A stretch of DNA of 64,000 nt from Candidatus Uhrbacteria bacterium RIFCSPLOWO2_01_FULL_47_17 (GCA_001791305.1 MGEI01000004.1:61101-125100), one strand, 5' to 3'; positions 3,675-55,750 are shown, numbered from the stretch's first letter. The notes: generated by a model from the letters alone, not told the origin. Numbers and translations are program-made.

Positions 3675-3806
3675 GAGTGAAAAAGTGGAAAAGTGAAAGA
3701 GTGAAGGAAGGAAATTTACTATTTGACGATTTGTTTAAAGAACAATCAAATAAATAATTTCCTTCACTTTTTCACTCTTTGACTTTTTTACTTTGTTTTC
3801 TTTCTC
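3675..3806. repeat. Purine-tract inverted-repeat element (AGTGAAAGAGTGAAGGAA arms around AT-rich loop), copy 1 of 4
   Basis: Left arm gagtgaaaaagtggaaaagtgaaagagtgaaggaagg, right arm ttccttcactttttcactctttgactttttt; low-GC element inside GC-rich island. Confidence 0.55.
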
Positions 3807-3848
3807 TGCAAGATGCCGCGAGCGTTTGCTCGTGATCTCTTGGGAGAC

Positions 3849-3893
3849 GGTCGATGAGGTGTAGCGAAGTAAGTGCTACATGCCTCATCGACC
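3849..3893. repeat. Strong hairpin GGTCGATGAGG(TGTAGC…GCTACA)CCTCATCGACC downstream of island gene D
   Basis: 11-bp perfect outer stem plus 6-bp inner stem; not followed by U-run. Confidence 0.45.
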
Positions 3894-3947
3894 GCAAGGT
3901 CTTTGTTTAAGAAGTCGTTAGACTCGACTTATGTGCAGGCTTGAGAC

Positions 3948-5120
3948 CTAGCCCTTGCGATTGCCCTTCTGCTGGAAGCGGCGGGGCTGGGTCTTCTGGG
4001 CCTGGGGGCCGGTGTAGAAGGCGGCGTGGAGCTTGTCCTGCTCCGCACTCGCCTCATACACAGCCGCGTTGGTCTCGAGGTCGCCGAGGATCTCCGTTTC
4101 GGCCTTGGCGACCGACTGGGGATTCTCGATGAACTTCGCGGCGCACTTCGGGCAGAGGGCGTAGTGGGTCATCAAGTGACTCACGTCCACCGGGCCACGC
4201 TTCGCCTCGTAGTTCATCTCCTGCATGTCCTCGAGCCGGGGGGCCTGCATGTCGTCGACCGAACCGACGAACGCCGTGCCCTTTTCGAGCGCGTGCTCGC
4301 ACTCGCGACCCTGGACGCACCGGACGAACGTCTCGCCAGTGCGGGGGTGCTTGAGCGGCTGGCCCAGGAAGACGGTCTTGCGGAAGTCCGAGTCCTGCTT
4401 GCGCCGCGCCGCCTTCTGCTCTTCGACCCGCTGCTTGCTCGCCGCCGCCCGCGCCTCTTCGGGGCGGACGATGTCGAGGGCCCTGTCGAGGAACATCAGG
4501 TCGTTGCGGTTGAGACCCCGCTGCATGGCGCCCTTGGCCGAGACCGCGTAGTTGCGCAGGTCGGCTTCGGTGGTGCGGCGATCGAGTTTCGTGTCGAGCA
4601 GGGCGAGCTTGAGAACCAGCATCTTTTCCACCGGACGCGTTTCGCCGGTGATGACGCAGGTCCACTCCTCGACCGGTTTCGCCTCGACCTTGTCCTCGAC
4701 CTTGGGGGCCTCGGGCTTGGTCTCGACGACGGTCTCGGTCGCTTCGGCCACGAGGGCTTCCACGATCTCGACCACCGGCGCGGGCATCAGCGACGCGAGC
4801 TGGTTGTTGTTCAGGCCAGCGAGGATGTCGCTCGGCGAGAACTTCTGCAGCTCGGCCACGTTGGCGCCGCCCTCGACCAGGCTCATCACCTTGTCGAGCG
4901 TGTCCACCGCCGGCGCCTTGCCGTCGGGGCACAGCCACTCGATGTCGACGCCCTTCTCCACGAGCGCCACGGTCGAGTTGAGCACTTCCTTGCCGATCGT
5001 CGCCAGGTTCTCGCGCTTCGCAGTGCGCAGAGCCTCGGACTTGTCGGCCTTGGCCGTGTTCGGATCGATGGTGACGCCGCGGTTGAGGAACTTGGCGACG
5101 AAGGTATGGGTCGTGGACAT
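3948..5120 (-). CDS. Hypothetical acidic protein with C-terminal Cys/His zinc-ribbon-like motifs (390 aa)
   Basis: ATG (MSTTHTF…) with GGAG SD; ORF-track 490-aa version extends through an in-frame GC-rich leader; C-terminus C-x5-C-x-H … C-x2-C; acidic/Lys-rich middle (KPEAPKVEDKVEAKPVEE). Confidence 0.5.
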   Translation of the reverse strand: MSTTHTFVAKFLNRGVTIDPNTAKADKSEALRTAKRENLATIGKEVLNSTVALVEKGVDIEWLCPDGKAPAVDTLDKVMSLVEGGANVAELQKFSPSDILAGLNNNQLASLMPAPVVEIVEALVAEATETVVETKPEAPKVEDKVEAKPVEEWTCVITGETRPVEKMLVLKLALLDTKLDRRTTEADLRNYAVSAKGAMQRGLNRNDLMFLDRALDIVRPEEARAAASKQRVEEQKAARRKQDSDFRKTVFLGQPLKHPRTGETFVRCVQGRECEHALEKGTAFVGSVDDMQAPRLEDMQEMNYEAKRGPVDVSHLMTHYALCPKCAAKFIENPQSVAKAETEILGDLETNAAVYEASAEQDKLHAAFYTGPQAQKTQPRRFQQKGNRKG

Positions 5121-5478
5121 GATGAACTCCGTGCGCGAGACTAGCTCGACGCGTTGTGAACCTATAGGAACACTGAATGCCCTTTTGGGGCTAGGACAAC
5201 TTTGGCCACCCGGCCTCAGCATCACAGATTCCGCAAGCTTGCACTTACGAACTCTGAAAGCTCGGCGACGGACTGTGTTGAAAGGGAGTGCCTTTCGCCA
5301 CAGCCGTCGCCAGATCTCGAGAAGAAGACTCGTGCCGCTCAACACTCGAGATGTTGAGTTCACTGTATGTATCCACATCCAATCGCCTGACATTGGATGC
5401 TTCTGTTTGCTGTTAGGCAATCATCGTTCTAACCTTTCCTTTGCTCTGTAACCTGAGCTAGGTGTGAGTTGAGGTCGG

Positions 5479-5607
5479 CTAGTCGACGCTGCGCTGGGCG
5501 GCGGTGACGAGCTTGGCGGCGGCGATGAGCTCGTTCGGGGTCTTGAACTGGCGCAAGTCGATGTAGGCCCGTTCGAGAATCTCGACTGCGGCAATGATCT
5601 GAATCAT
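5479..5607 (-). CDS. Small hypothetical protein (42 aa, MIQIIAAVEILERAYIDLRQFKTPNELIAAAKLVTAAQRSVD)
   Basis: GGAGTACCC-ATG SD; GC-rich island. Confidence 0.4.
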   Translation of the reverse strand: MIQIIAAVEILERAYIDLRQFKTPNELIAAAKLVTAAQRSVD

Positions 5608-5651
5608 GGGTACTCCGTGCGAACTCGGTGGTTCGCGTCTGGGTGGTTGGG

Positions 5652-5801
5652 CTACTTGACGAGGACCAGAGGCGCGAGCGAGCTGGCGAAGAGCAGCAGC
5701 ATGGCGACTTCGCCGGTGCAGAGCTTGCCGAGGATCTCGAACGCGCGATCGCTGCTCGTGGGGATGAAGTACGGGAGGGAGACGGTGAGGTTCTTGATCA
5801 T
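5652..5801 (-). CDS. Small hydrophobic-tailed protein (49 aa, MIKNLTVSLPYFIPTSSDRAFEILGKLCTGEVAMLLLFASSLAPLVLVK)
   Basis: GGAG 9 nt upstream of ATG; first ORF downstream of repeat R2. Confidence 0.4.
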   Translation of the reverse strand: MIKNLTVSLPYFIPTSSDRAFEILGKLCTGEVAMLLLFASSLAPLVLVK

Positions 5802-5891
5802 GGTGTCGATCTCCGTGCGAACTCGATGGCTCGCGTCTGGGCTGTGGACTGGTCGATTCGTTCGACGCAGGAATCCGAGGGTAGGTCGATT

Positions 5892-6027
5892 CAGTGACCG
5901 CCCGAAGGCTGGTGTGAATCATGAGTATCGTGCGTATGGAATGAGTGAGGGTTAACCCAGTCAAACCATTTGATACTCACCGCTCTCATTCGCCGAAGCG
6001 TTTTGAAAGACGGTTTGCTCTCTCCCC
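5892..6027. repeat. Copy R2 of the duplicated ~130-nt leader element
   Basis: See R1; the palindrome at the equivalent position differs (GGGTTAACCC here vs AAGCTT in R1). Confidence 0.6.
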
Positions 6028-6240: not shown

Positions 6241-6318
6241 GACCCACACTTAGGAAATAGTGAGAATTAGGCTAGAATTAGCCAAATCAAGTTGTCAGGA
6301 AGTTCTGGAATGGAAAGG

Positions 6319-6415
6319 GGTAGCCGCAGGCTTCAGCCTGCGCCGGGTGGGAATATGGCTATTTCATATTTCGAGATACACCTTCGGGTACACGCAGGCT
6401 GAAGCCTGCGGCTAC
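6319..6415. repeat. Perfect 23-bp inverted repeat (GTAGCCGCAGGCTTCAGCCTGCG … CGCAGGCTGAAGCCTGCGGCTAC) with 51-bp spacer, followed by T-run; contains the GGCTTCAGCC motif
   Basis: Exact arms 6319-6341 and 6393-6415; then cgcgtttttatgttataat. Confidence 0.6.
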
Positions 6416-6425
6416 CGCGTTTTTA

Positions 6426-9153: not shown

Positions 9154-10479
9154 ATGGAGCATTCAAAAATCACCATGGAAAAAATTGTTTCACTCGCGAA
9201 AACTCGCGGGTTTGTTTTCCCTGGTTCGGATATTTACGGCGGACTCGCAAACTCATGGGACTACGGTCCACTTGGAGTTGAATTGAAAAACAACATTAAA
9301 CAAACATGGTGGAAAATGTTTGTGCAAGAGCGCCTCGACATGGTTGGGATCGATGCCGCACTCATCATGAATCCAAAAGTCTGGGAAGCGTCGGGGCACG
9401 TCGCTACGTTTAGTGATCCGCTCGTCGAATGTAAAACATGTCATGAGCGTTATCGCGCCGATCAGATCGATCTTGGGGCGCCATGTGTAAAATGCGGCAA
9501 CAAGGGAACGTTTACCGATCCTGCATCGTTTAATCTCATGATGAAAACATGGCTCGGTCCAAAAGAGGACGCGAGTGCTGTTGCGTATTTCCGACCAGAA
9601 ACCGCGCAGGCGATGTTTGTGGATTTTCCGAATGTGATTACATCGAGTCGTAAGCGCGTTCCGTTTGGAATGGCACAGATTGGAAAAGCGTTCCGCAATG
9701 AAATTACTCCGGGAAATTTTATTTTCCGCACACGCGAGTTTGAACAAATGGAGATCGAGTACTTCGTGCATCCATCCGATTGGGAGAAGTTCTTTGAAGA
9801 GTGGCTCGCGAATATGTACAAGTTTATGGACCGCGTCGGAATAGACGCGGCTCGTTCGCATAATCTCGAAGTCGCAAAAGATGAGCTCGCGCACTACTCG
9901 AAACGTACAGTCGACATTGAATTTGATTATCCGTTCGGACGCAAAGAATTGTACGGACTCGCATATCGCACAGACTTCGATCTTTCCACACATGCGAAAT
10001 ACTCTGGATCGAACATCGTGTATACAGACCCAATGACAAACGAGAAATATGTTCCGCATGTGATTGAACCCTCTTTTGGTGTCGATCGCACACTTCTCGC
10101 TGTTCTCCTCTCGGCCTACGACGAGGAAACAGTCGCATCCGAAGAAGGGGAAGGAGACACACGCGTTGTTTTGCGATTCAAAAAAGAAATTGCCCCAATC
10201 AAGATTGCTATTTTGCCACTCAGTAAAAAAGAAGAACTTTCAAACGTCGCGCGCCCAATCGCAGAAGCGCTTGCAAAATATTGGCGTGTTGACTATGACG
10301 AAACGCAATCCATTGGAAAGCGTTACCGACGTCAAGACGAAATCGGAACGCCGTATTGTGTCACGGTCGACTTCGAGTCACTCGAAGACAAAGCAGTCAC
10401 CATTCGCGATCGCGATACGATGAAACAAGAACGGGTACCAATTGCCGAGCTCGAAGTGTGGTTCAAAAAACAATTTTAA
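9154..10479 (+). CDS. glyQS: Glycine--tRNA ligase (homodimeric class II type)
   Basis: FVFPGSDIYGGLANSWDYGPLGVELKNN…, class II motifs, 441 aa. Confidence 0.9.
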   Translation: MEHSKITMEKIVSLAKTRGFVFPGSDIYGGLANSWDYGPLGVELKNNIKQTWWKMFVQERLDMVGIDAALIMNPKVWEASGHVATFSDPLVECKTCHERYRADQIDLGAPCVKCGNKGTFTDPASFNLMMKTWLGPKEDASAVAYFRPETAQAMFVDFPNVITSSRKRVPFGMAQIGKAFRNEITPGNFIFRTREFEQMEIEYFVHPSDWEKFFEEWLANMYKFMDRVGIDAARSHNLEVAKDELAHYSKRTVDIEFDYPFGRKELYGLAYRTDFDLSTHAKYSGSNIVYTDPMTNEKYVPHVIEPSFGVDRTLLAVLLSAYDEETVASEEGEGDTRVVLRFKKEIAPIKIAILPLSKKEELSNVARPIAEALAKYWRVDYDETQSIGKRYRRQDEIGTPYCVTVDFESLEDKAVTIRDRDTMKQERVPIAELEVWFKKQF

Positions 10480-10480
10480 A

Positions 10481-10605
10481 AAAAGTGAAAGAGTGATGGA
10501 GTGGAAGAGTGAAGGAATGAGACAACTTTTTCTTTTTTGAAACGATGAAACAAAAACAAAAAGCTGTTTCTCTTCCACCACTCTTTAACTATTTCACTCT
10601 ATCAC
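10481..10605. repeat. Purine-tract inverted-repeat element, copy 2 (AAGTGAAAGAGTGATGGAGTGGAAGAGTGAAGGAATG … CTCTTCCACCACTCTTTAACTATTTCACTCTATCACTC)
   Basis: Same AGTGAA-repeat family as 3675-3806; between glyQS stop and M16 peptidase start. Confidence 0.55.
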
Positions 10606-10622
10606 TCTGCCTCCCCCCCCCT

Positions 10623-11891
10623 ATGCCCCACCAAAACTTCACTTTAAAAAATGGTATGCGCGTTCACTTGGTTCCGGTTTCTGGAACGCAAGCGGTGACG
10701 GTTTTGGTTCTCACAAAAGTTGGATCGCGTTACGAAACACCAACCCTCAGCGGGGCATCGCACTTTATTGAGCACCTCATGTTTAAGGGAACAAAGCGCC
10801 GTCCAACAACGCTCGACATTTCTCGTGCGCTCGACTCGGTCGGGGCACAATACAACGCATACACAAACAAACACGAGACGGGGTACTACATCAAAATCGA
10901 CGCGAAACACACATCGCTCGCGGTCGACATGTTGCATGACATGGTATTCAACTCGAAGTTTGATCAAAAAGAATTGGATCGCGAGCGCGGGGTGATCATT
11001 GAAGAGATCAACATGTATCAGGATAGTCCGATGAGACATGTCGAGGATTTGCTCGAAGGTCTTGTGTTTGATGGAAACACGCTCGGATGGGAAATTGCGG
11101 GATCGCACAAAACCATGAAAGAAATGAAACGCGATGAGATTATTGCGTTTCGTGATTCGCATTACATTCCGTCGCGTATGGTTGTGTCTGTTGCGGGAAA
11201 TATTCCAAAAGATATTAAGAAGACGCTCGAAAAAACATTTGGAAGCGTAAAGATCAGCAAGGCGGAACATCCAACGTTCGCGCCGTTTGTAAAATCGAGC
11301 ACAAAGAAAAAAGTAAACGTTCAATTTAAAAAGACGGAACAGATTCACCTCATGTTCGGATTTCCCTCGTTTGGAATCGGTGACGATCGCAATGAGGCCC
11401 TCGCACTCCTGTCTTGCATTCTCGGCGGCACCATGAGTTCACGTTTGTTCATCTCGGTTCGTGAACGCAAGGGTCTCGCGTACATGGTGCGCTCGAGTAA
11501 CACAGCGTATGACGACGCGGGTGTGTTTTCCGTTCAAGCTGGACTCGATAAATCTCGCGTGCTGCTTGCGTACAAGACGATTATGCAAGAGCTTCGCAAA
11601 ATTAAACGCGAAGGCGTGACCGCAAAAGAAGTGAAAGAGGCGATTGATCACGTGCGCGGAAGTATGTTGCTTGCGATGGAAAGCTCTTCGTTCCAAGCGG
11701 AATGGTACGGCGATGACGAATTGTTTCTGAACAGAGTTCGCACCCCAGAACAATTCATGGCCAAACTTTCGAAGATCACCGCGGCAGATATCAAAGCGAT
11801 CGCAAACGAAGTGATCAACGAAAAGAATATGAAAATGGCGGTCATTGGACCGTATAAAAATGAAATGGATTTTTTGAAATCCATTTCGTAA
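10623..11891 (+). CDS. M16-family zinc peptidase (insulinase-like)
   Basis: HFIEHLMFKGT (HxxEH inverted zincin motif); start taken at MPHQNF because ORF-track N-extension is the repeat element. Confidence 0.85.
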   Translation: MPHQNFTLKNGMRVHLVPVSGTQAVTVLVLTKVGSRYETPTLSGASHFIEHLMFKGTKRRPTTLDISRALDSVGAQYNAYTNKHETGYYIKIDAKHTSLAVDMLHDMVFNSKFDQKELDRERGVIIEEINMYQDSPMRHVEDLLEGLVFDGNTLGWEIAGSHKTMKEMKRDEIIAFRDSHYIPSRMVVSVAGNIPKDIKKTLEKTFGSVKISKAEHPTFAPFVKSSTKKKVNVQFKKTEQIHLMFGFPSFGIGDDRNEALALLSCILGGTMSSRLFISVRERKGLAYMVRSSNTAYDDAGVFSVQAGLDKSRVLLAYKTIMQELRKIKREGVTAKEVKEAIDHVRGSMLLAMESSSFQAEWYGDDELFLNRVRTPEQFMAKLSKITAADIKAIANEVINEKNMKMAVIGPYKNEMDFLKSIS

Positions 11892-13952: not shown

Positions 13953-14108
13953 ATGTCACAAGAAAACCTCATCAAATTGGAATGTAAAGATTGTAAGCGC
14001 GCTGGCTATAATAGCCACAAGAACAAGAAAACCTTGAAAGAGCGCTTGGAACTCAGCAAATTCTGCAAGTGGTGCAACAAGCACACTCTTCACAAAGAGA
14101 CGAAATAA
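13953..14108 (+). CDS. rpmG: 50S ribosomal protein L33 (zinc-ribbon form); below ORF-track size cutoff
   Basis: MSQENLIKLECKDCKRAGYNSHKNKKTLKERLELSKFCKWCNKHTLHKETK; two CxxC pairs; tRNA-Thr-Tyr-Thr/rpmG synteny. Confidence 0.85.
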   Translation: MSQENLIKLECKDCKRAGYNSHKNKKTLKERLELSKFCKWCNKHTLHKETK

Positions 14109-14134
14109 CACCCCATCACGGGGTGTTTTCGTTT
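14108..14134 (+). terminator. Rho-independent terminator after rpmG (ACACCCC-ATCAC-GGGGTGT + TTTCGTTT)
   Basis: 7-bp GC stem plus U-run. Confidence 0.6.
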
Positions 14135-16093: not shown

Positions 16094-16150
16094 GAAAAGT
16101 CAAAGAGTTAAAAAGTCAAAAAGTGAAGGAGATGACACTATTTTCATTTT
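16085..16150. repeat. Single-arm copy (3) of the purine-tract repeat family (AAAAGTCAAAGAGTTAAAAAGTCAAAAAGTGAAGGAG)
   Basis: Near-identical to rc of right arm of copy 1 (caaagtaaaaaagtcaaagagtgaaaaagtgaaggaa). Confidence 0.5.
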
Positions 16151-16183
16151 TTGAGATTCCTGTATAATCGCGAGCGCGAGTCC

Positions 16184-16257
16184 TAGGGGCGTCGTTCAAT
16201 GGTAGGACGAAGGTTTCCAAAACCTTTGACGTGGGTTCGATTCCCTCCGCCCCTGCC
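16184..16257 (+). tRNA. tRNA-Trp (anticodon CCA)
   Basis: Acceptor AGGGGCG/CGCCCCT, anticodon loop TTCCAAA, T-loop TTCGATT; one T-stem mismatch; overlapped by a spurious ORF-track start. Confidence 0.8.
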
Positions 16258-42593: not shown

Positions 42594-42596
42594 TGT

Positions 42597-43547: not shown

Positions 43548-43556
43548 ATTTTCATT

Positions 43557-44375: not shown

Positions 44376-44399
44376 CTGATTGTTTTATTTCTCTTTATT

Positions 44400-45614: not shown

Positions 45615-45662
45615 AGTTAGAAATATTGATTCGTTAAGAATTATTTTGGGTGAGCACAATTT

Positions 45663-46604
45663 ATGGCATTTAAAAAAGGCGCCCAGAGACCATTCCGTTT
45701 TCATTTTTTTACGGTTTGGTCACACGGACTTTTTCACATCGATGAAATACTTTCTCTTTTACGCAAGGATGAGAATATTGAAATTCTTCGTATTGAGAGA
45801 AATACATTTAAAAATATACGTCGTTTCATTTTTGATTTTTATGGAAGTGATGCGGTTCCTGTTTCGCATTTGAGAGCAAAATTAGCGTATCTGTTCCAAC
45901 AACGAGGACCAAAGGAGGTAATTAATATTTTTGTAAAAAATTACAATCCGCAGGAAGTCTGGGTTGGTTCTCATCCGTTTCGCAAGGAGCAGTGTCAGTA
46001 TATTGTGGAAATAAAAAAACAGATTCGTAATTTATACAATCCAAAAGCGAAGGATCCAAATTTCTGCGTATTCCCCCTTGATAAAGGAGTTTCGCATGAA
46101 CACATGATTCACGCGTCTGATCGCGAGGAGCAGGTGGATTATTATTTGAAACTATTAGGCCATAAAAACGGAATCGAAACTATCGTCAATGACGATAAGG
46201 GTCTCTTATTTGAAAAACCCTATCATATTCATAGACCTGTACAGTATTCTTTTCATCGGCTCCCCATCCATGCACTTTTGGCGAGTATTCTTACGGAAGA
46301 AAAAGGTGTAAGTAAAAAACTTGTGCCAATTATCGATACTCCTCATTTTAAAGGGTTACAAATAGACAGCTTGTATTATAAAAAATACTTAGAGACATTT
46401 CGATTCAGCTATTTGTGCGATGACTATTCGTTGGAGCGGTTTATGCAAGGAAAAAAGATGACAAAGGCAGAGCTTTTGCAACTGCCTCCCATTTTAGTAA
46501 AATCATTAGACAATGGGAAATTTCAGGTATTAGATGGTGTTCATCGTGCGTCTCTGTTACTTTTTGCTGAGATCGAAAAAATAAAATGTGTTCTGTATGA
46601 ATAG
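45663..46604 (+). CDS. Hypothetical protein in polysaccharide locus
   Basis: ORF only; no recognised motif. Confidence 0.35.
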   Translation: MAFKKGAQRPFRFHFFTVWSHGLFHIDEILSLLRKDENIEILRIERNTFKNIRRFIFDFYGSDAVPVSHLRAKLAYLFQQRGPKEVINIFVKNYNPQEVWVGSHPFRKEQCQYIVEIKKQIRNLYNPKAKDPNFCVFPLDKGVSHEHMIHASDREEQVDYYLKLLGHKNGIETIVNDDKGLLFEKPYHIHRPVQYSFHRLPIHALLASILTEEKGVSKKLVPIIDTPHFKGLQIDSLYYKKYLETFRFSYLCDDYSLERFMQGKKMTKAELLQLPPILVKSLDNGKFQVLDGVHRASLLLFAEIEKIKCVLYE

Positions 46605-47262
46605 TTCCACCCCCATTTCGCTTATTTCTATCCTACAGGTTCTCGGTGATGATTATGTTCTCTTAAAAAAGAATGTTGATTTTCCATTGTTTGTTCCAGG
46701 AAGTGATATTGATATTTTAGTAGTCGATCGTTTTATTGCCTCTCGTAGCTTGTGTCAATATTTGCAAGAAAATTTGTCTTTAGAAGACACGTTTGTACAT
46801 ATACAGGAAGAGGCTCAGCATCTATTTGTTGATGTTATACGAGATAATAAACTATGGATTCGAATAGATCTTATAGATCAATTCGGGTATTTTAGGCGTT
46901 TTTCTGTACAGGAATCTTTAAAGATTCAACTTTTTCGTTCCAAAATTAGTTTGAGTGTTGATGGTGCGCGTATTTTTGTTCCATCCAATGAGTTCGATAT
47001 TTTGATGAGATACATGGAATATCTTGAATGGTTTGAAATACGCCCAGATAAGATTAAACATCTCGAATATATTTTACAATGTTCAAATGAACAAGAGCAG
47101 AAGCAATTGATCGATCATTTGCACCAATATATTTCGCTTTTTCATAAAAAATGGCAGGGGGATGTTCCTCAACGCGAGAATAGAATAAAGAGGTTTGCAA
47201 AATACATAATACGATTTTATCGACGAATTTCGCACATCATTTTGCGTATCCGAAATAAATAA
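46588..47262 (+). CDS. Hypothetical protein in polysaccharide locus
   Basis: ORF only. Confidence 0.35.
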   Translation: MFCMNSSTPISLISILQVLGDDYVLLKKNVDFPLFVPGSDIDILVVDRFIASRSLCQYLQENLSLEDTFVHIQEEAQHLFVDVIRDNKLWIRIDLIDQFGYFRRFSVQESLKIQLFRSKISLSVDGARIFVPSNEFDILMRYMEYLEWFEIRPDKIKHLEYILQCSNEQEQKQLIDHLHQYISLFHKKWQGDVPQRENRIKRFAKYIIRFYRRISHIILRIRNK

Positions 47263-47274
47263 CGGATCATTTTT

Positions 47275-48090
47275 ATGATGTATTCATTAAAGATTTTTTG
47301 TGACTGGATGCTGCCCATCGAATTAGAGTTCGATGAGCCAGTAGAGTTGTATGTTGATAAAATTCACGTTGATGTTTCGTTGTGTAAAAAAATTCTCTTG
47401 CTTGTTGAGCCAGATGAGTTGACCCGTTTTTCCGATTGGGTTATTCAGAATCATTCGTACTATCATGCGATCTTGACGCACGAAGAGAAAATATTGAATG
47501 CATGCCCCAACGCACATCTGATGGTATTTGGGCCACCATGGGTTCATTCATATGCGTTTCCGCAAAAAACGTTCGGCGTTTCAACGGTCGTTGGGTTAAA
47601 AAAACAACTGCCAGGACATTGGTTGCGACTTGCATTATGGAGGCGGCAAGAGGAAATATTGATCCCAAAAAAATTTTATACGAGCGAACGAGGGGGTAAG
47701 ATTTTTTGGCGTCTTATGCATCGGATCAAAAACGTTCATATGCCTCTGCTCGGCGAAAGTAAACTCCCTTTATTTGATGCGCAATTTCATATTGCGATTG
47801 AAAATTGTAAAAAAACTTATTGGTTCACAGAAAAATTAACAGATTGTTTTCAAACAAAAACAATTCCTATTTATTGGGGATGTCCCAACATTGGAAATTA
47901 TTTTGATATGCGAGGCATGATTTTGGTAGAGAGTGTTGACGATATTATTGTTGAATGTAACAAGCTCACACCAAGTACGTATGAACAAATGTTGAAATAT
48001 GCGAATGCTAATTATGAAACATCTCTGCGCTATGTTGATTTTGCAGGACGTGTAAAAGAAAAGATTCAAATAGTGATGTCTGTGGAATAG
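47275..48090 (+). CDS. Putative GT10-family alpha-1,3-fucosyltransferase
   Basis: FHIAIENCKKTYWFTEKLTDCFQTKTIPIYWG resembles GT10 motif YLAFENS…Y(V/I)TEKLW; GDP-fucose pathway genes adjacent. Confidence 0.45.
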   Translation: MMYSLKIFCDWMLPIELEFDEPVELYVDKIHVDVSLCKKILLLVEPDELTRFSDWVIQNHSYYHAILTHEEKILNACPNAHLMVFGPPWVHSYAFPQKTFGVSTVVGLKKQLPGHWLRLALWRRQEEILIPKKFYTSERGGKIFWRLMHRIKNVHMPLLGESKLPLFDAQFHIAIENCKKTYWFTEKLTDCFQTKTIPIYWGCPNIGNYFDMRGMILVESVDDIIVECNKLTPSTYEQMLKYANANYETSLRYVDFAGRVKEKIQIVMSVE

Positions 48091-48092
48091 AT

Positions 48093-49034
48093 ATGAAAAA
48101 CGACTTATCAATCGATGTTGTCATTCCGGTATTTAATGGTGCGGCCTTCATTGAAGAGGCTTTGATTTCTGTTGTGCAACAAACATTTCTTCCGCATCAG
48201 ATATTTGTGATCAATGATGGCTCAACAGATAATACTTCTGAAATCGTGGAGAAATTTGCCAAAACAAGCACTGTACCTATCATACAGATACAGAAAAAAA
48301 ATGGTGGACCAAGTTCCGCTCGTAATGCGGGTATTCGGATGAGTACGAGTCAGTATATTGCTTTTTTGGATGCAGATGATGTTTGGCAAGCAGATAAACT
48401 TTCTTCACAAATATCGATTTTCGAAGCATCCTCAGACGAGACTTTAGGAATCGTCTATGGACGATATTCACTCATGAATGAACAAGGTGTTGAGATCCAT
48501 GAGACGTTTTATAATCCAAAGGTATGTTTAAAAGGTTTGATCTTTTCTTCTTTGTTGGGATCAAATAAAATCTGCGGAAGTGGAAGTGCTGTGTTGATAA
48601 AACGAACTTGTTTTGATTGTGTTGGATATTTCGACGAAACATTACGAGCAGCGGAAGATTGGGATATGTGGCTCCGATTGGCGGAACGGTACATGTTTGA
48701 TTATGTTGATCATGTAGTTGTTCGAATACGTAGACATGGGGCAAGTATGCAAAAGAATCAAAAAACGTTTTTTTTGAATCAGTTGGCTTTTTATCGCAAA
48801 TGGACGTACATGTTATCAGATCAGAGTCAGGCAGGTGATGAGTGGGCAATATTTTTGGTCGATCAATTGTTACTTAGTATTCGATTTTTCAATTTTGATA
48901 CAATATTTGTGACAGCAATTTATTCAATCCCAAAAGACACAAAAAAGAAAATTTTTTGGAAGTCGCATGGTTTTATCCTTTTGTATATATGTAGAAGAGT
49001 TTTGTATATCATTTCTTGTAAAATAAAAAAGTGA
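48093..49034 (+). CDS. Family 2 glycosyltransferase
   Basis: VVIPVFNGAAFIEEAL…INDGSTDNT, DxD. Confidence 0.75.
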   Translation: MKNDLSIDVVIPVFNGAAFIEEALISVVQQTFLPHQIFVINDGSTDNTSEIVEKFAKTSTVPIIQIQKKNGGPSSARNAGIRMSTSQYIAFLDADDVWQADKLSSQISIFEASSDETLGIVYGRYSLMNEQGVEIHETFYNPKVCLKGLIFSSLLGSNKICGSGSAVLIKRTCFDCVGYFDETLRAAEDWDMWLRLAERYMFDYVDHVVVRIRRHGASMQKNQKTFFLNQLAFYRKWTYMLSDQSQAGDEWAIFLVDQLLLSIRFFNFDTIFVTAIYSIPKDTKKKIFWKSHGFILLYICRRVLYIISCKIKK

Positions 49035-50029
49035 TAAATATGTCGTACGTATCATCTTTTCAAAACGTACAACCAAAAATCAGTGTTATTATGCCCGTTT
49101 ATAACGGGTCTCGTTATTTATGTGAAGCAATCGAAAGCATCTTAAAACAAACGTACAGTGATTTTGAATTGATTATCGTTGATGATTTTTCAACCGATAA
49201 TACTGTTGATTTGATAAAAGAATATCAAGCAAAAGACAAGCGTGTTCATCTATATAAAAACGCATTCACGAAGGGGATTGTTGGTTCGTTAAATACGGGC
49301 TTGGCCCACGCTTCCGGTTTGTATATTGCAAGGGCAGATGCGGATGATGTGAATCTACCATCACGATTCATGGATCAAGTTAACATGTTAGAACAGAATC
49401 CAGATATCGTATTGGTGGGTGCGGGATGTCGAGTTTTTTCAGAGAAAGGATTCGGAAAATCGATTTATCGACCCAGTTCAGCAGTTGAATTGGCGTGGCG
49501 TCTTATCAGCGATACGTATTTTTGTCATCCTGTGACGATGTATCGAAAAGAAATCGCCACAGCATTTCATGGATACGCACAAAAAGAAGCGGAAGATTTC
49601 GATTTATTCTCTAGGATTATTAAAAAACACCAAACAAGAAATTTGCACAAAGTATTACTAAACTATCGCGAGCATTCATCGAATCGTTCAAAAGAAGCTG
49701 CGCAAGCGATTGCTAAAAGTGTACACAATATTTTCTTAGATAATTTTGAATACTATTTTGGAACAACGAGAAATGCAGATAAATTCTTTGCATTTCAGCA
49801 TGATGGAATTATGCATGTGAGTGATTTTATTTTAATCACACGCATGAACCTCCAAATTATTCGAAAGATATTGTTGGATTATCACATATCTTTTTTCTCT
49901 CGAGAAGTATTTTTTTGCACCAATAAAATATTCTTCTTGCAATGTCGTGCGCTTTTTTCGCGATGGATATCAAGCTTAAAAATGATCTTACGTTCATTCT
50001 ATCGATACTTACTTGGAAAGTCGTTATGA
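49031..50029 (+). CDS. Family 2 glycosyltransferase
   Basis: ISVIMPVYNGSRYLCEAIESILKQTY…IIVDDFSTDNT. Confidence 0.75.
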   Translation: MINMSYVSSFQNVQPKISVIMPVYNGSRYLCEAIESILKQTYSDFELIIVDDFSTDNTVDLIKEYQAKDKRVHLYKNAFTKGIVGSLNTGLAHASGLYIARADADDVNLPSRFMDQVNMLEQNPDIVLVGAGCRVFSEKGFGKSIYRPSSAVELAWRLISDTYFCHPVTMYRKEIATAFHGYAQKEAEDFDLFSRIIKKHQTRNLHKVLLNYREHSSNRSKEAAQAIAKSVHNIFLDNFEYYFGTTRNADKFFAFQHDGIMHVSDFILITRMNLQIIRKILLDYHISFFSREVFFCTNKIFFLQCRALFSRWISSLKMILRSFYRYLLGKSL

Positions 50030-51099
50030 AAATTCTCTATACAGCATTGAAATATGATTACGGTGATCCTGCCCGAGGGTATAGTTTTGAACACTATAAT
50101 TTTTATGATGCCCTTATAAAAATGGAGGGGGGAAAACATGAAATTCTCTATTTTCCATTTGATGAAATTGGCGCATCCCTTGGCAGGGAAGGATTGAATA
50201 AAAAGATGTTAGAGGTTGTACGATCAGAAAAACCGGATTTGTGCTTCTTTTTTCTTTTTGAACATGAATTCGATTTTGAAACAATTAATGAAATCACTCA
50301 GAATTCAGGAAGCAAAACATTTGCATGGTTTTCGGACGATCAATGGCGGTTTCAAAATTATTCAAAACATTACGCACCTTGTTTTCATTGGATATCCACA
50401 ACAGATAAACGAGCTGTGGAAAAATATAGAAAAATTGGTGTTTACAATGTCATTAAATCTCAGTGGGCCTGCAATCATTATTTGTATCATCCAAAAGATC
50501 GTGTGAACATTGGACAACCAGTTCGTAATGAAATTACATTTGTTGGACAGCCACACGGAAATCGTAAGCAAGTTATTCGTGCGTTGGAAAAAAGACATCT
50601 CCCCGTCGTCTGCTATGGGAATGGCTGGCCTCAAGGAAGAATTTCTCAAGAAGAAATGATTGAGGTATTTGAATGTAGTAAAATAAATCTGAACTTAACA
50701 AAGGCGAGTGCTGTACGACGCATGCCAAATTTTGTGTATGTGTTTTTGCATAAGGAGAATGGTGTGATTAAATTGAGATCTTGGAAAAAGATTTGGGAAG
50801 ATCTCCGTTTTTCATTTCGAAAAACACAAGAGCAAATTAAAGGGCGTAATTTTGAAGTACCTGGATGTGGAGGGTTTCTTCTGACTGGATATGCGGAAGA
50901 TTTGGAAAAATATTATGTGGAAGGAAAAGAGGTTGTTGTATTTCGTGGAATTAAAGATCTTGCAAAAAAAGCGTATTATTATTCAACACATGAAGAAGAG
51001 CGTAAACAGATCGCGCGTGCGGGATTCGAACGAACGGTGAAGGATCATACGTATGAAAAACGATTTCAAGAAATTTTTCACATAATGGGCTTGGAATAA
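50026..51099 (+). CDS. CgeB-like glycosyltransferase (DUF3880/GT1-like)
   Basis: Start MKILYTALKYDYGDP (ATGA overlap with upstream GT2); CgeB-family layout. Confidence 0.45.
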   Translation: MKILYTALKYDYGDPARGYSFEHYNFYDALIKMEGGKHEILYFPFDEIGASLGREGLNKKMLEVVRSEKPDLCFFFLFEHEFDFETINEITQNSGSKTFAWFSDDQWRFQNYSKHYAPCFHWISTTDKRAVEKYRKIGVYNVIKSQWACNHYLYHPKDRVNIGQPVRNEITFVGQPHGNRKQVIRALEKRHLPVVCYGNGWPQGRISQEEMIEVFECSKINLNLTKASAVRRMPNFVYVFLHKENGVIKLRSWKKIWEDLRFSFRKTQEQIKGRNFEVPGCGGFLLTGYAEDLEKYYVEGKEVVVFRGIKDLAKKAYYYSTHEEERKQIARAGFERTVKDHTYEKRFQEIFHIMGLE

Positions 51100-51101
51100 T
51101 T

Positions 51102-51863
51102 ATGCCTAGAATGAGTGTCATTCTTCCTGTGTTTAACGCAGAGAAGACAATTCAACAATCTATTCAGAGTGTGCTGAATCAAACCTTTAGGGACTTTGAA
51201 TTGATTGTGATTGATGATGGTTCAACAGATGAAACACAAAAAATTATTCAAGGGATTCAGGATGCTCGTGTTATTTGCATAAAAAATGAAAAAAATCTTG
51301 GTTTGCAAAAAACATTGAATCTTGGATTACAAAAAGCAGTTGGGACATACATTGCACGGATAGACGCGGATGATACTTGGATTGATCGCAACAAGTTGTT
51401 ACACCAAATTTCGTTTTTAGATACCCGTCCTCTTGTCGTTCTTGTTGGTACGGGTGCTGTTGTGATGAAAGCTGGTCAAGAACTATTTCGTTTCCTTAAC
51501 CCATCTTCTGACGTCGATATTCGTCGAATTCTTTTGGGGAAAAATACGTTTGTTCATTCAAGTGTTGTATTTAAACGAGACGCAGCACTGCGTGTTGGAG
51601 GGTATTCAGAAGATGTGACGGTAACGCATGTGGAGGATCATGATCTTTGGTTAAAATTAGGGACACAAGGTATGCTCGCGAATTTGGCGGAGTATGATAT
51701 ACAATACACGTTGTCAGAGACACAAATTAGCAGCCGCCATAAGCGTATTCAATTTTTTCGAGATGTTTTACTGGTCAATAAATATGCAAATAAGTATCCA
51801 GGAAAATGGCGAGCATGGATTCGCGGGTTGATGAGGTTGGGATATTATGGTTTTTTGAAATAA
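51102..51863 (+). CDS. Family 2 glycosyltransferase
   Basis: MSVILPVFNAEKTIQQSIQSVLNQTFRDFELIVIDDGSTDET. Confidence 0.75.
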   Translation: MPRMSVILPVFNAEKTIQQSIQSVLNQTFRDFELIVIDDGSTDETQKIIQGIQDARVICIKNEKNLGLQKTLNLGLQKAVGTYIARIDADDTWIDRNKLLHQISFLDTRPLVVLVGTGAVVMKAGQELFRFLNPSSDVDIRRILLGKNTFVHSSVVFKRDAALRVGGYSEDVTVTHVEDHDLWLKLGTQGMLANLAEYDIQYTLSETQISSRHKRIQFFRDVLLVNKYANKYPGKWRAWIRGLMRLGYYGFLK

Positions 51864-51867
51864 TTAT

Positions 51868-52767
51868 ATGCGTTTTAGTATCGTCATTCCAACATTTGAG
51901 CGGCAACAATCACTTCATGAGTGTTTGTCTTCGATTTTATTACAATCACGTCTTCCAGACGAGGTAATTATTGTAGATGATGGTACGCTGTCAGAAGTGT
52001 TTATTACAGATGAAAGAGAGCGATTTAAACAATCGAAATGCACACTTTCATATTACAGAAAAGATCATGTGCAAGTATCACGAGGCACTTCCATTTCACG
52101 CAATATCGGAATGAGCCTCGCACGTGAGGAGGTTGTATTTATTTTGGATGATGACTTGTTTCTTGAAAAAAATTTTCTGGATGAGATTATGTCTGTTTGG
52201 GAGCGTGAAGATTGCACAAGTATTATCGGGATTGGTGGTGTGATTTTAAACAACCGAAAAAAGTCTTTGCTTGAATTATTTTTCAATCATGTATTTGTTC
52301 TTGAATCAACATATTCGTGGGATGTGACGGATGTGGGGTATCAAACATGGAATGATGGAATCCAAAAGTGTGTTCGTGGTTTTTATGAGCATGGTGGTGC
52401 TTGTTCGTACCGAAAAACATTCGTGATGAAATTGGGTGGTTTTACCGTGTTGAATGATGGACGAACAGCGCTTGAAGATGTTGAGTTTGCACTGCGTGCA
52501 AAACGTTCAGGACTTGGTTATTTTATTGAACCGCGCGCTCGCACAGAACATAACCATGCTTTAGGCGGACGAACATCTAAATGGAGGAGTGCATTTCAGG
52601 AAAGTCAAAACAGAAAATGGATTTTTCAAACGATGTGTAAGCAAGACGTTCTGCATCAGCTTTGGTTTGTGTGGTCATCTACCGGATGGATACTGCGACA
52701 ATTTTTGAGTGGGCAGTTTCAAAAGGGATTTGGTATGATTATTGGTTTTTTTGTGCGAAACGTATGA
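51868..52767 (+). CDS. Family 2 glycosyltransferase
   Basis: FSIVIPTFERQQSLHECL…VIIVDDG. Confidence 0.7.
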   Translation: MRFSIVIPTFERQQSLHECLSSILLQSRLPDEVIIVDDGTLSEVFITDERERFKQSKCTLSYYRKDHVQVSRGTSISRNIGMSLAREEVVFILDDDLFLEKNFLDEIMSVWEREDCTSIIGIGGVILNNRKKSLLELFFNHVFVLESTYSWDVTDVGYQTWNDGIQKCVRGFYEHGGACSYRKTFVMKLGGFTVLNDGRTALEDVEFALRAKRSGLGYFIEPRARTEHNHALGGRTSKWRSAFQESQNRKWIFQTMCKQDVLHQLWFVWSSTGWILRQFLSGQFQKGFGMIIGFFVRNV

Positions 52768-53876
52768 ATATTCTTTATGTCATTACGAAATCTTCTCGTG
52801 GAGGTGCACAACAGCATGTTCGTGATCTTGCAATAGCATTTCAGGATCAAAAAAATACGGTCACTGTTGCGATTGGTGAGAAAGGCGGATGGTTACACGA
52901 TCAGTTGACGGAACGTGGAATCGGAGTCGAATATGTTCGTTTATCACGAACATGGAATCCGCTTGTTTTTTTTGCATACATGATCGACCTGATGCGTATT
53001 CTGAAGAATATTAAACCCGAGATCGTGCATTTTCATAGCTCACATACGTTAATCGGTACATGGATTGTTCGTTTTTGTTTTACGCATATTAAATCAATTG
53101 TTACTGTTCATGGCTTAAGTTTGCTTTATCCAGGAGCAGCAAAAAAATGGATACAAGCAATATACGCATTTTTTTTGCGCAGCGTTTTTTTGAGTGCAGA
53201 TCGAGTAATTTCTGTATGTTTATTTGATAAAAAAATACTGCTCGAACAAAAACTTGTTACACAGAATAACATAGAGATGATCCATAATGGAGTATTTACA
53301 CCTGCTTTTTTTACGCCTGAGGAGGCTCGAATGCAAATTGGACTTCCGTTAGGTGTAACGATCATTGGAACTCTTGCCCGCTTTTCGTATCAAAAAAATC
53401 TTTCATTTTTGATTGAATCTTTTGCTGCATGGAATCACCCAAGCGCCTTGCTTTGTTTGATCGGAAGTGGAACAGAGGAAGGGATGTTGAAACAACTTGT
53501 GCGCGATCAAGGGATTGAGGATCGCGTATTTTTTCGACAAGGAGATGCAACTGTATTGAAAGCGTTTTCCTGTTTCGTTCTTTCATCCCGTTACGAAGGT
53601 TTTCCGTACGTTCTTCTTGAATCCGCTCTTGCCCAAGTTCCTCTTATTGCCACAAATGTAGGAGGAGTTTCTGAACTGATTGAACAAAATCAAACAGGCT
53701 GGTTGATCCCATCTAGCGACATTCCTGCACTTGTACAAGCATTGAATGATGTTGTGTTCGATGCAGATCGCGCGAAAAGATATGCACGTGCAGCACAAGC
53801 TCGCGTACAGTCAAATTTTATGATTGAATCGATGATTCAAAAAATAGATAGACTTTATCAGTCGCTCAACGACTAA
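52764..53876 (+). CDS. Family 4 (GT1-fold) glycosyltransferase
   Basis: Start MNILYVITKSSRGGAQQHV (ATGA overlap); EGFPYVLLESALAQVPLIATNVGG. Confidence 0.75.
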   Translation: MNILYVITKSSRGGAQQHVRDLAIAFQDQKNTVTVAIGEKGGWLHDQLTERGIGVEYVRLSRTWNPLVFFAYMIDLMRILKNIKPEIVHFHSSHTLIGTWIVRFCFTHIKSIVTVHGLSLLYPGAAKKWIQAIYAFFLRSVFLSADRVISVCLFDKKILLEQKLVTQNNIEMIHNGVFTPAFFTPEEARMQIGLPLGVTIIGTLARFSYQKNLSFLIESFAAWNHPSALLCLIGSGTEEGMLKQLVRDQGIEDRVFFRQGDATVLKAFSCFVLSSRYEGFPYVLLESALAQVPLIATNVGGVSELIEQNQTGWLIPSSDIPALVQALNDVVFDADRAKRYARAAQARVQSNFMIESMIQKIDRLYQSLND

Positions 53877-53919
53877 ACATGCTTTTGTATTAGAAATTGA
53901 TACTGCTTCGTTTCGCGCA

Positions 53920-55242
53920 TTACATAAGCCTCTTCTTCGTCTCCACCTTATATCCCTCCACGGCCGGTTGATCAAATGCGTTTACACTCATGAGCTGCGC
54001 AAGATACATCATCTCCACCATACGAAATTGCAAATAATACCCCAGTTCTTTTTCTGAAACAGCCTCAAGTTCGATCGAGAGGAATGGGCGTTTGAGTTTT
54101 TGATAGGTCGCTGTGACGCCACCCACGATTTCGGACATGAGTTCATCGAGCGATTTTCCTGGAAGATGCTCGACCATGTTTGGAAAGAGAAGTTTTGAGG
54201 GGACACGACCACCCCCTGCTCCCTCCTTCATAAAGGAGGGAGTTCTTGCGATGGAAATAATATTCGTAAACTTATCATCTGGACCACCGAAGTAGAGTTG
54301 TGCCATCGAGTGTAAATCGGTTGAACCAATCGAAACAATCGGTGTGATGCCGGCGTGCACAACATGACCATCCAAATCTTTTTCTTTCCCTACACTTTCG
54401 CCCATCAGTTGTCGATACCACTTTCCGAGCGATTCGAGTTCCGGCGCAAACAGAAATGTATTGTGAATGGATCGGCCTTTTTTTGCATGCGCATATGTTG
54501 CATAAGCAGAAACAAGCGCATGATTTTGTGCGGTGTCACCCAAGAGTCCGTCTTCGACCGCTCCTCGTGCACCCTCGACCAGTTTGCGAACGTCATATCC
54601 TGCAACAGCGAGGGGAAACAATCCAACAGCAGAGAAGACACTGTACCGACCTCCAACCTTTGCGGGAATTCCGAGATGATCGATCTTTTGTTTTTTTGCT
54701 GCTTCGAAGAACTTTGACCCGTCATCACTTATTACGACAAGGCGATCGCGTACATCTTTATATAGCTTCTTGAGTGCGGCCAATAATGCTTCTGTGTTTG
54801 CCATTGTCTCCGTCGTTCCACCTGACTTACTGATCGATACGATCAGGAATTGTTTTTTGTTTTTAAGTTGTTTCGTGAGTTTTTCGAGAACCAAAGAAAA
54901 ATGTGTACTCGAGACTGTGTCGAGAAACAACATCTCGACATTTTTTCGAGGAAGCGCATCATAAACTGCCTGCGTTCCAAGATTTGAACCACCAATGCCA
55001 ATCACAACAACGATCTTTAATTGTTTGGTTCGATATCCTTCAGCTCGTTCGAGAATCGCATCGATATGCGTCGAAAACGGGAGATTGATGGAACATTCAA
55101 GGTCATCGAATTCGCTTTTCTCTCGAACATTGACCAGATGTCGACGATACGACTCGAGTTGTTTGGCCGACGTGCCGAGTTCTTTTGCAGAGATTCCTGA
55201 ATTTTTTGTGGAGATGATCATAGAAAAATGTATTTCCGACAT
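53920..55242 (-). CDS. pgi: Glucose-6-phosphate isomerase (short bifunctional-type Pgi)
   Basis: SIS-domain motifs (…LVVISDDGSK…GGRYSVFSAVGLFPLAVAGYD…); start at MSEIHF. Confidence 0.8.
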   Translation of the reverse strand: MSEIHFSMIISTKNSGISAKELGTSAKQLESYRRHLVNVREKSEFDDLECSINLPFSTHIDAILERAEGYRTKQLKIVVVIGIGGSNLGTQAVYDALPRKNVEMLFLDTVSSTHFSLVLEKLTKQLKNKKQFLIVSISKSGGTTETMANTEALLAALKKLYKDVRDRLVVISDDGSKFFEAAKKQKIDHLGIPAKVGGRYSVFSAVGLFPLAVAGYDVRKLVEGARGAVEDGLLGDTAQNHALVSAYATYAHAKKGRSIHNTFLFAPELESLGKWYRQLMGESVGKEKDLDGHVVHAGITPIVSIGSTDLHSMAQLYFGGPDDKFTNIISIARTPSFMKEGAGGGRVPSKLLFPNMVEHLPGKSLDELMSEIVGGVTATYQKLKRPFLSIELEAVSEKELGYYLQFRMVEMMYLAQLMSVNAFDQPAVEGYKVETKKRLM

Positions 55243-55398
55243 CTTACCGTTTTTGCGCTCTTTTCGCGAGTGTCTTTTTCTACCTTTCCAACTTTTCCGA
55301 CCTCTCGGACTTTCTTCACTTATCCACACCCCGCGCCGACTTTGTGAATTTCTGATAAAATATCTTTAGTTTTAAGATTTATTCATTATTTTTTTCGT

Positions 55399-55614
55399 AT
55401 GTTCATGAAAGGCGAAAAGTGCGGCGTACATTGCGTTGCTTGGTGGCTTTTACTCGTTGGTGGACTTAACTGGGGACTTGTTGGTCTTTTCAACTGGAAC
55501 CTTGTTGAAGTTCTCTTTGGCGCATGGCCAATGCTCGTAAAGATTGTTTACATCTTGGTCGGACTTTCGGCGGTGTCTATGTTGATGAAGAAGTCTTGCA
55601 AGGCGTGTAAGTAG
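55399..55614 (+). CDS. DUF378-family small membrane protein
   Basis: VAWWLLLVGGLNWGLVGLFNWNLVE… typical DUF378. Confidence 0.6.
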   Translation: MFMKGEKCGVHCVAWWLLLVGGLNWGLVGLFNWNLVEVLFGAWPMLVKIVYILVGLSAVSMLMKKSCKACK

Positions 55615-55750
55615 GGAAAAAAGGAGAAAGTAGAGAGTAGAAAGCAGAAAGGGGGGGAAACATTTTTCGTTTTCTTTCATGATCTATTTTTGAAAACTAC
55701 TTTTTCTTTTTTTCCTTTCTATTTTCTACTTACCCCTTTCTACTTTTTCT
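55612..55750. repeat. Purine-tract inverted-repeat element, copy 4 (AGTAGAAAG-repeat variant)
   Basis: Left arm aggagaaagtagagagtagaaagcagaaaggggggg, right arm cctttctattttctacttacccctttctacttttt; runs directly into bcp ATG. Confidence 0.5.

Follow-up and report, generated by a model that had tools for sequence, protein, structure and literature searches.

The 64,000 nucleotide stretch of Candidatus Uhrbacteria bacterium RIFCSPLOWO2_01_FULL_47_17 analysed here (GCA_001791305.1, MGEI01000004.1:61101-125100; referred to as the window) carries four copies of an AT-rich repeat element at gene boundaries. Read in the sequence, three are full imperfect palindromes and one is a single arm, and all lie essentially where an earlier note, made from the sequence alone, had placed them. 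Copy 1 (3671-3810) is situated between a plus strand open reading frame (ORF) and a conserved RNA-like segment and consists of a purine arm (about 3673-3712), an AT-rich spacer (3713-3758) and a pyrimidine arm (about 3759-3806); its 37 nt arms are 84% complementary, with TGCAGAG / CTCTGCA as the outermost pairing. As the note had remarked, this copy is AT-rich (GC content of 0.29) within a GC-rich island. Copy 2 (10480-10610) is a full imperfect palindrome in the spacer between glyQS and an M16 peptidase gene: it begins one base after the glyQS stop codon (10477-10479), ends 12 nt short of the M16 ATG and has one additional 8-nt unit in its right arm, which causes a bulge in the fold. Copy 3 (16085-16137, plus strand) is a lone purine arm that overlaps the stop codon of an SLT-like gene (14765-16093); directly 3' of it, and 17 nt 5' of tRNA-Trp (16185-16258), lies a sigma-70-like promoter (TTTTCA-16-TATAAT; 16141-16168, plus strand). 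Copy 4 (55607-55750), a full imperfect palindrome and the variant of the set, is built of GTAGAAAG-type units and spans from the stop codon of a DUF378 gene (55399-55614) to the ATG of bcp (55751). Three of the four copies (copies 2-4) are thus located directly after a stop codon. The M16 peptidase gene extends from 10623 to 11891 (plus strand): both the Pfam fit and ATGCCCCA, which is conserved in orthologues, place the true ATG at 10623, and the ATG at 10545, within the spacer, creates the false N-terminal extension that the note had suspected.

In the arms, the unit AGTNRAAR is repeated in tandem every 8 nt, and the GC content of the copies is 26-35%, compared to 46.5% for the window. A scan of the window with the arm consensus AGTGAAAGAGTGAAGGA (up to three mismatches) returned 10 matches, all within copies 1-3, against 0.14 expected; when three AGTNRAAR units in period 8 were searched for, only the five arms of copies 1-3 were found, and shuffled sequences gave 0-1 positions. 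The repeats are real and far above chance. The single 8-mer is not enriched in the window (9 found, 7.2 expected): only the arrays are over-represented. A DNA-uptake sequence was rejected as an explanation, since outside the arrays the single unit shows no over-representation, and a three-frame stop-codon device, with a TGA every 8 nt, because the common AGTC units contain no stop codon. The density of elements in the window is low (4 per 64 kb). None is found within a block of about 14 kb of co-oriented genes (40000-54000) that has a GC content of 0.35-0.40, compared to 0.46-0.50 elsewhere.

The earlier note had proposed long hairpins followed by U-tracts on either strand. The hairpins hold for the three palindromes, which have spacers of 45-58 nt between their arms: in comparison with shuffled sequences, the plus strands of copies 1, 2 and 4 have predicted folds of -58.3 kcal/mol (z = -10.4), -47.9 kcal/mol (z = -7.0) and -46.4 kcal/mol (z = -3.9), respectively, and the minus strands have similar stability. 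The single arm of copy 3 has only a weak local hairpin (-13.9 kcal/mol, z = -1.7). The U-tracts do not hold: no copy has a free U-tract beyond the complete hairpin, and the U-rich tracts are inside the 3' arm. The full hairpin of copy 2 is followed by GCCTCCCCCC and that of copy 4 by the ATG. The order of purine arm, AT-rich loop and pyrimidine arm is as the note described it, but the T-run proposed as the end of the pyrimidine arm is replaced by a C-run in copy 2.

A family of related elements in Candidatus Uhrbacteria

Elements of the same design are present in at least four other Candidatus Uhrbacteria assemblies (Loclat CAIKXH01, LacPavin JAPLZK01, CALQZE01 and CAYHDY01), in support of a lineage-associated family, which the note had called lineage-specific; the scan with the arm pattern covered one genome per species and the family counts from it are lower bounds. 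In an alignment of 13 elements from 5 sources, each element has 4+4 units, in which an invariant trinucleotide returns every 8 nt (AGT for the left arm, ACT for the right), and an inner clamp GTGAAGGAA/TTCCTTCAC. The best-conserved segment is TTCCTTCAC followed by TTTTT, and the TTTTT(C/G)AC tract after this clamp is paired within the full hairpin. The spacer is AT-rich (T-rich, then A-rich) and about 25-60 nt long across the family, and the pyrimidine arm stops 9-21 nt ahead of an ATG. The arms are purine tracts unable to self-pair; there is no short palindromic unit of the REP (repetitive extragenic palindrome) type with a conserved 5' tetranucleotide.

All-versus-all local alignments of the elements reach scores of up to 117 (median 48), while composition-matched shuffles average 19 and do not exceed 31. 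Over 34 positions, the left arms of copy 1 and L095 are identical at 33 (counted by eye in the alignment), and the L095 arm equals the L082b arm up to the clamp; the three loci are non-orthologous, and L095 and L082b are in other genomes. Closely related multi-unit arms therefore occur at unlinked, non-orthologous sites in different genomes, as is typical for miniature transposable elements with inverted repeats (MITEs), and inverted doublets that form a long hairpin occur together with singlets, all of them extragenic, as is typical for REP and REPIN sequences. In the arm comparison, the arms of copy 4 match each other and not the arms of other elements; the same unit type is found in L102 (3455-3565).

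In the closest relatives, about 75 kb of syntenic loci contain no AGT-type arms, but more distant bins have them at high density (Loclat, 4.3 arms per 10 kb). A metagenome scan with the AGTC-type pattern mostly returned chance or other-phylum matches, with one clear Uhrbacteria-type copy (L228). Rfam searches of the whole window at gathering score identified only tRNAs, and an E-value search around copy 1 only sub-threshold plant miRNA hairpins. Literature searches on the unit sequence, on octamer repeats and on repeats or promoters of the Candidate Phyla Radiation found no description of such elements.

Copy 1, the adjacent segment (3808-3945) and a minus strand ORF (3948-5120) recur together in the LacPavin locus L073. 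The homology of copy 1 to L073 5867-5962 includes the spacer, and the ORF shares 38% identity with L073 6136-7341, a homologue that is flanked by two elements. The earlier note had taken the position of copy 1 in the island as a sign of mobility or recruitment after acquisition. This claim fell: copy 1 travels with this cassette and is no evidence of an insertion after acquisition. The segment at 3808-3945 (plus strand; GAUGCCGCGAG...), directly 3' of copy 1 and 3' of the homologous minus strand ORF, resembles a conserved structured RNA: two further copies are present in L073, each after an element, with compensatory changes and with G-U pairs on the plus strand only. It has no Rfam match. The ORF lies within the GC-rich island (about 4000-6000, 57-67% GC), whose ORFs match nothing in Pfam or PHROG; for 3948-5120, gene callers differ in the strand, and ENA calls the antisense frame.

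Polarity, gene context and pairing of the arms

Within 210 kb, 22 cases have a 5' purine arm and a 3' pyrimidine arm; none has the opposite order, two apparent artefacts being set aside (a masked-N stretch of L248 and a match in L103, which was not inspected). In other phyla the purine arm is first in 35 cases and second in 5. This order is identical on both strands because the element is an inverted repeat.

The elements fill intergenic gaps. Often they stop 1-21 nt short of an ATG that lacks both a Shine-Dalgarno sequence and the TGnTATAAT leaderless promoter usual in this genome. Every element has at least one start (ATG, tRNA or RNA-like segment) 0-21 nt from a pyrimidine arm. In other Uhrbacteria the pyrimidine arm adjoins ATGs with the context YYtATG and, once, a tRNA 5' end; several elements touch the start of an opposite-strand gene, in divergent spacers, and there is no strictly convergent case among the Uhrbacteria elements examined. 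Genes with N-termini at the element edge are real according to Pfam (YebC, ParB, DAGK and DsbA-like; in the window M16 and bcp). Shine-Dalgarno sequences are almost absent in the window and many genes have TGGTATAAT 6-10 nt before the ATG: the organism seems to depend mostly on leaderless mRNAs. At the starts 102, 6445, 14765, 37017 and 56234, an extended -10 box (TGGTATAAT or TATACT) is located 6-10 nt 5' of the ATG. A pyrimidine arm beside a start codon fits the general preference of this genome for pyrimidine-rich sequence without Shine-Dalgarno before the ATG.

This proximity to starts, together with the lack of a TGnTATAAT promoter at the adjoining genes, could mean that the element is a promoter and leader cassette: the spacer would be the promoter, the pyrimidine arm an unstructured leader without Shine-Dalgarno, and read-through transcripts would be silenced by the hairpin. 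The arm of copy 3 is followed by a real-looking promoter, the L082 spacer holds TG-TACAAT ahead of a tRNA, the element at the bcp site takes the place of both a terminator and a promoter of a relative, and short tandem repeats of TAACTGA just 5' of starts without Shine-Dalgarno are a precedent (PMC4679880). However, in 18 spacers the best -10-like matches are of mediocre quality, with no bias to the sense strand (9 versus 6, p = 0.57), and a promoter in the spacer as a general rule is unsupported. In a few cases a strong extended -10 box is positioned just outside the distal arm instead, one relative has its hairpin upstream of an intact TGCTATAAT promoter, and the element is missing at orthologous sites of close relatives. 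We consider a promoter cassette very unlikely.

The polarity is the same as that of bidirectional intrinsic terminators, on both strands of which an A-rich tract, a stem and a T-rich tract follow each other. The elements could accordingly be dedicated terminators or attenuators, with arms that are elaborated A- and T-tracts and stop transcription from either side. The clamp TTCCTTCAC followed by a T-run, a GC-containing clamp and then U-rich sequence, is the best-conserved part; the window copies are mostly placed right behind stop codons; relatives hold canonical terminators at the sites of copies 3 and 4; and a canonical terminator hairpin forms the centre of one element (L085 4916-5052). 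But a spacer of about 25-60 nt replaces the loop of 3-8 nt, the U-rich tract is paired in the full hairpin, and several Uhrbacteria copies are in divergent spacers at gene starts, where there is nothing to terminate. Relatives join glyQS and M16 by spacers of 5-22 nt, M16 and bcp have no promoter of their own downstream of the element, and there is no bias in stability to the sense strand. Moreover, a scan with the terminator consensus does not flag the elements and yet flags canonical terminators nearby: these are present separately in the window (14107-14127, 16258-16286, 28086-28132, 38881-38945 and 56682-56705), and for this reason the elements form a class apart. On these grounds the elements are no canonical intrinsic terminators, whereas the earlier note had offered long-hairpin intrinsic terminators as one reading; dedicated terminators or attenuators are, in our view, unlikely.

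Is pairing of the arms selected? Pairing is slightly better within an element than between arms from different elements. In the fixed register of the 13-element alignment, 90.9% of the cells pair, compared to 86.4% in shuffles, and none of 500 shuffles reaches the observed value. Where the units of an element vary, both of its arms show the variant (copy 4, L102a and all other unit types). The gene-distal arm of several copies has degenerated towards A, resulting in A-C mismatches in the sense RNA. The complementarity of the arms is real; either selection or concerted evolution of the DNA palindrome could maintain it.

The invariance of AGT/ACT every 8 bp, whatever the pairing, would also fit arrays of operators on double-stranded DNA, in which boxes of ACTC/ACTT type with a period of 8 bp and a T-rich spacer of 4 bp are bound by a cooperative ribbon-helix-helix or nucleoid protein. 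Precedents are the met-boxes of MetJ (8-bp period), the ACTC boxes of ParG/parH and the omega heptads: boxes of 7-8 bp in direct and inverted orientation near promoters, with an ACTC-like core and a 4-bp AT-rich spacer, as in the elements. The single arm of copy 3 beside a promoter, and arms that are hardly more complementary to each other than to the arms of other elements, are in line with this reading. Unlike in these arrays, the units are unconserved at orthologous sites: the same architecture is found at orthologous or neighbouring spacers with quite different units and periods, each of which would need its own protein. The polarity rule is independent of the unit type, covariation between arms is above that of shuffles, and no candidate binding protein was identified here. 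Operators are highly improbable.

Turnover at orthologous sites and comparison of strains

The spacer between glyQS and M16 is 143 nt long in the window and holds copy 2. In the relative with 93% M16 identity it holds an 87-nt hairpin of AAAGGCCAT / ATGGCCTTT 9-mers, unrelated to copy 2, and at 87% M16 identity it is only 5 nt long (TAA-AAATT-ATG). One of two relatives with 83% identity has an unrelated repeat hairpin of GTAACAAAG / CCTTTGTAA 9-mers, the other a perfect GTACTCGTGTACTAGTAC (GTAC...) palindrome; a GTCATTGCGAGG-type hairpin is present at 77% identity; and at 74%, 67% and 62% identity the spacers are 22 nt, 15 nt and 45 nt long, the last with no hairpin. As the spacers of close relatives are either empty or filled with unrelated hairpins, the sequence between stop and start has been replaced rather than diverged. 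The glyQS-M16 spacers of relatives still end in a pyrimidine run before the conserved ATGCCC.

The other sites behave similarly. Canonical terminators are found at the copy 3 site in three relatives; in the 87% relative, the site of copy 4 holds a canonical terminator (A7-stem-T6), then TGCTAAACT, 8 nt and the ATG. Neighbouring spacers of relatives contain hairpins or single arrays of GAGAGGC, AGTTAGT/CTAACTA, AGAAGTTCA, GGAAAGGTT or AACTACN units. Presence and absence differ between species at 62-93% protein identity, although filled sites in relatives often hold different hairpins.

Some further hairpins were also seen. A second family of hairpin repeats (GTCATTGCGAGG...CCTCGCAATGAC) occupies gaps of Uhrbacteria (L249 395-472 and L085 about 2920-3040) and includes the glyQS-M16 site of the 77% relative. 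A GC-rich palindrome (6314-6421; 29-nt arms, 93% complementary) is located just 5' of the leaderless promoter of holB; in the 93% relative, its orthologous position is taken by a repeat hairpin of purine/pyrimidine type, with GAGAGGC units and then TGCTATAAT (L245 3753-3853). Upstream of pyrG (ATG at 56877), a hairpin with 28-nt arms and the core GAGCAGTCCGCCCTTCGGCAAGCCACCGCAGACGGGCTCTCCGCAAGCG (56736-56841, plus strand) is followed by the pyrimidine-rich AACTCCTAACTTTTCC just before the ATG. Its core is conserved in the 87% relative (L252), the flanking arms differ yet still pair, and it has no Rfam match; it may be a leader or riboswitch of pyrG.

How the copies arise is a separate matter. 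A small hairpin or terminator at the boundary of a gene could grow in place by tandem duplication of a local unit through slippage, with the other arm templated by template switching; such hairpins would have no mobility and would only be tolerated. Arms that differ by insertions or deletions of whole units (for example, the 8-nt bulge of copy 2), the unrelated 7-mers, 8-mers and 9-mers in the same or neighbouring spacers of relatives and the single arrays without a partner (copy 3 and spacers of L248 and L250) all suit this origin, and prokaryotes are known to have long simple-sequence repeats of 5-11 nt (Mrazek 2007, via PMC4679880). On the other side, the same order of multiple units together with the clamp is found at non-orthologous loci in different genomes, the distribution among Uhrbacteria is patchy, and a mutational process does not predict strict polarity. 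As a full account of the elements we regard it as quite unlikely, while for the way in which copies arise it is a live alternative.

For comparison among strains, nine assemblies of the same Rifle groundwater population were available. In two of them a contig ends inside an arm of copy 2, as expected for a repeat. In one strain variant of the window from about 16200 onward (L003 17043-21326), the genes after tRNA-Trp are replaced by a serine recombinase, two DNA methylases and a BpuJI-like nuclease; this looks like a restriction-modification island integrated at the tRNA.

Interpretation and wider occurrence

As our leading, if tentative, reading we propose that the elements are dispersed palindromic repeats of Candidatus Uhrbacteria, 100-140 nt long, which form a REPIN- or MITE-like family and whose transcripts are terminator-like hairpins; the dedicated-terminator, promoter-cassette and protein-operator readings are weaker. 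The arms are short tandem arrays, mostly of four 8-bp AGT-S-R-A-A-R units, with two arrays inverted around an AT-rich spacer, and a transcript of either strand would therefore run from a 5' arm rich in A and G through a GTGAAGGAA/UUCCUUCAC clamp to a 3' arm rich in U and C. Copies are gained, replaced and lost at gene boundaries much faster than point substitution would permit, and persist only in places that tolerate them, precisely in the gap from a stop codon or neighbouring gene to the next start. When co-transcribed, the elements would fold into long hairpins, and clamp and U-rich tract would turn them into leaky bidirectional terminators or substrates for double-strand RNases, akin to REP/BIME and Correia elements; they would not be dedicated, conserved regulatory signals. 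Judged from its sequence, the element is shaped like a bidirectional terminator whose spacer is very long: A-rich 5' arm, GC clamp and U-rich 3' arm. The sequences show the family, its architecture, polarity, positions and turnover; transcription, folding, termination or processing and mobility are inferred from them. Leaky termination or RNA processing at the elements is likely; termination, if it occurs, must be leaky, because M16 and bcp lack promoters of their own.

Several results weigh against this proposal. The M16 and bcp genes have no recognisable promoter of their own downstream of the element. In a free-register test of elements of the common AGTG/AGTC type, the own arms are hardly more complementary (0.74) than arms of different elements (0.69). 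Fold stability has no bias to the sense strand of the adjacent gene (10/18, p = 0.98): selection for a sense-strand RNA hairpin was not detected, and selection at the RNA level is therefore not demonstrated. The strict polarity extends to unrelated unit types and, because of this, a purely selfish model can explain it only via selection on tolerated sites. Different hairpins at one site could have arisen in place, by slippage and template switching, and not by insertion. All nine strain assemblies carry identical copies with no difference in presence or absence, and thus give no sign of recent movement. Neither target-site duplications nor conserved termini were found at any of the four copies or in the comparison of the filled with the empty glyQS-M16 site (TAA-element-ATG versus TAA-AAATT-ATG, with no direct repeat flanking). 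No RAYT or transposase gene was seen in the 64 kb and the scattered loci, for which no dedicated search was made; the window proteins tested had no Pfam or PHROG match to a transposase, and no genome-wide search for insertion sequences with matching ends was made. Of the REP- or MITE-like character that the earlier note had put forward, the dispersed near-identical arms and the filled and empty sites stand, while the target-site duplications that it wanted checked are absent and the nine assemblies show no polymorphism.

REP and REPIN sequences are extragenic, mobilised by RAYT and made of inverted halves that form a hairpin of about 100 nt; they are GC-rich palindromes with a GTAG head and can terminate or stabilise mRNA. 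The elements described here share the dispersed, extragenic positions, the two inverted halves with a less conserved spacer, the singlets, the lack of target-site duplication and the clustering of related copies. They differ in that their arms are non-palindromic purine tracts of tandem 8-nt units, in that they abut start codons, in the lack of an identified RAYT and in their number (4 per 64 kb). Correia elements, ERIC, RUP, BOX and NEMIS are intergenic inverted repeats of 100-150 bp that terminate transcription, are cut by RNase III or bring promoters. Correia elements and other MITEs resemble our elements in being intergenic inverted repeats of similar size whose presence differs between related genomes, and co-transcription and folding would be a further likeness. 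Unlike these, the Uhrbacteria elements have no TA or other target-site duplication and no conserved terminal inverted repeat that was seen to match an insertion sequence; moreover, their spacers are mostly unconserved between copies, their arms are internally repetitive and their purine-to-pyrimidine polarity is strict.

We found no paper on such elements in the Candidate Phyla Radiation; the nearest published description is that of TAACTGA heptamers, which occur as direct repeats just 5' of starts without Shine-Dalgarno in Beggiatoaceae, Cyanobacteria and Bacteroidetes and are of unknown function (MacGregor 2015, PMC4679880). Both kinds of repeat consist of ACT-containing tandem units of 7-9 nt, a few nt 5' of starts without Shine-Dalgarno and with patchy distribution, and relatives of the window genome carry the TAACTGA-like arrays CTAACTA and AACTACN. 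Different from TAACTGA repeats, the elements have an octamer unit, mostly form inverted hairpin-forming pairs and reside in a Candidate Phyla Radiation host.

Among the matches listed, tandem octamer arrays of AGTGAAGG type are found in Acidobacteriota, Chlorobiota, Bacteroidota, Cyanobacteria and others (many of L010-L124), often as inverted pairs with short GC loops after stop codons. In an Anaerolineae contig (L086, CBDAUV010000073), one octamer array at 1180-2500 is more than 1 kb long. The AAGGAGTGA repeat is similar to a Shine-Dalgarno sequence, and the complement of the repeat to the 16S 3' end. A far broader reading, to which we give little credence, would see the elements as part of a widespread, undescribed class of cross-phylum 'tandem-unit hairpins' (7-9-nt units, A/G-rich 5' and U/C-rich 3' arms): self-contained modules for the boundaries of transcription units in organisms with leaderless mRNAs or without Shine-Dalgarno, spreading like REPIN. 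If this were true, units of 7-9 nt would correspond to about the length of one RNA:DNA hybrid; the hairpin would stop or process incoming transcripts and bring an upstream stop or an mRNA 5' end beside the next AUG, and the next gene would still be translatable without Shine-Dalgarno.

The genomes of the Candidate Phyla Radiation are small and tightly packed, and the limits of their transcription units as well as their non-autonomous mobile repeats are almost undescribed. Repeats at gene boundaries that break assemblies and create false ORF extensions, as for M16, matter for annotation and binning. The exchange of unrelated hairpins within the same gap between stop and start points to an unusually fast process that acts on scarce non-coding bases. 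The presence of the same polarity in arrays of Acidobacteriota, Bacteroidota, Chlorobiota and Cyanobacteria suggests a general constraint, which may be termination or initiation without Shine-Dalgarno.

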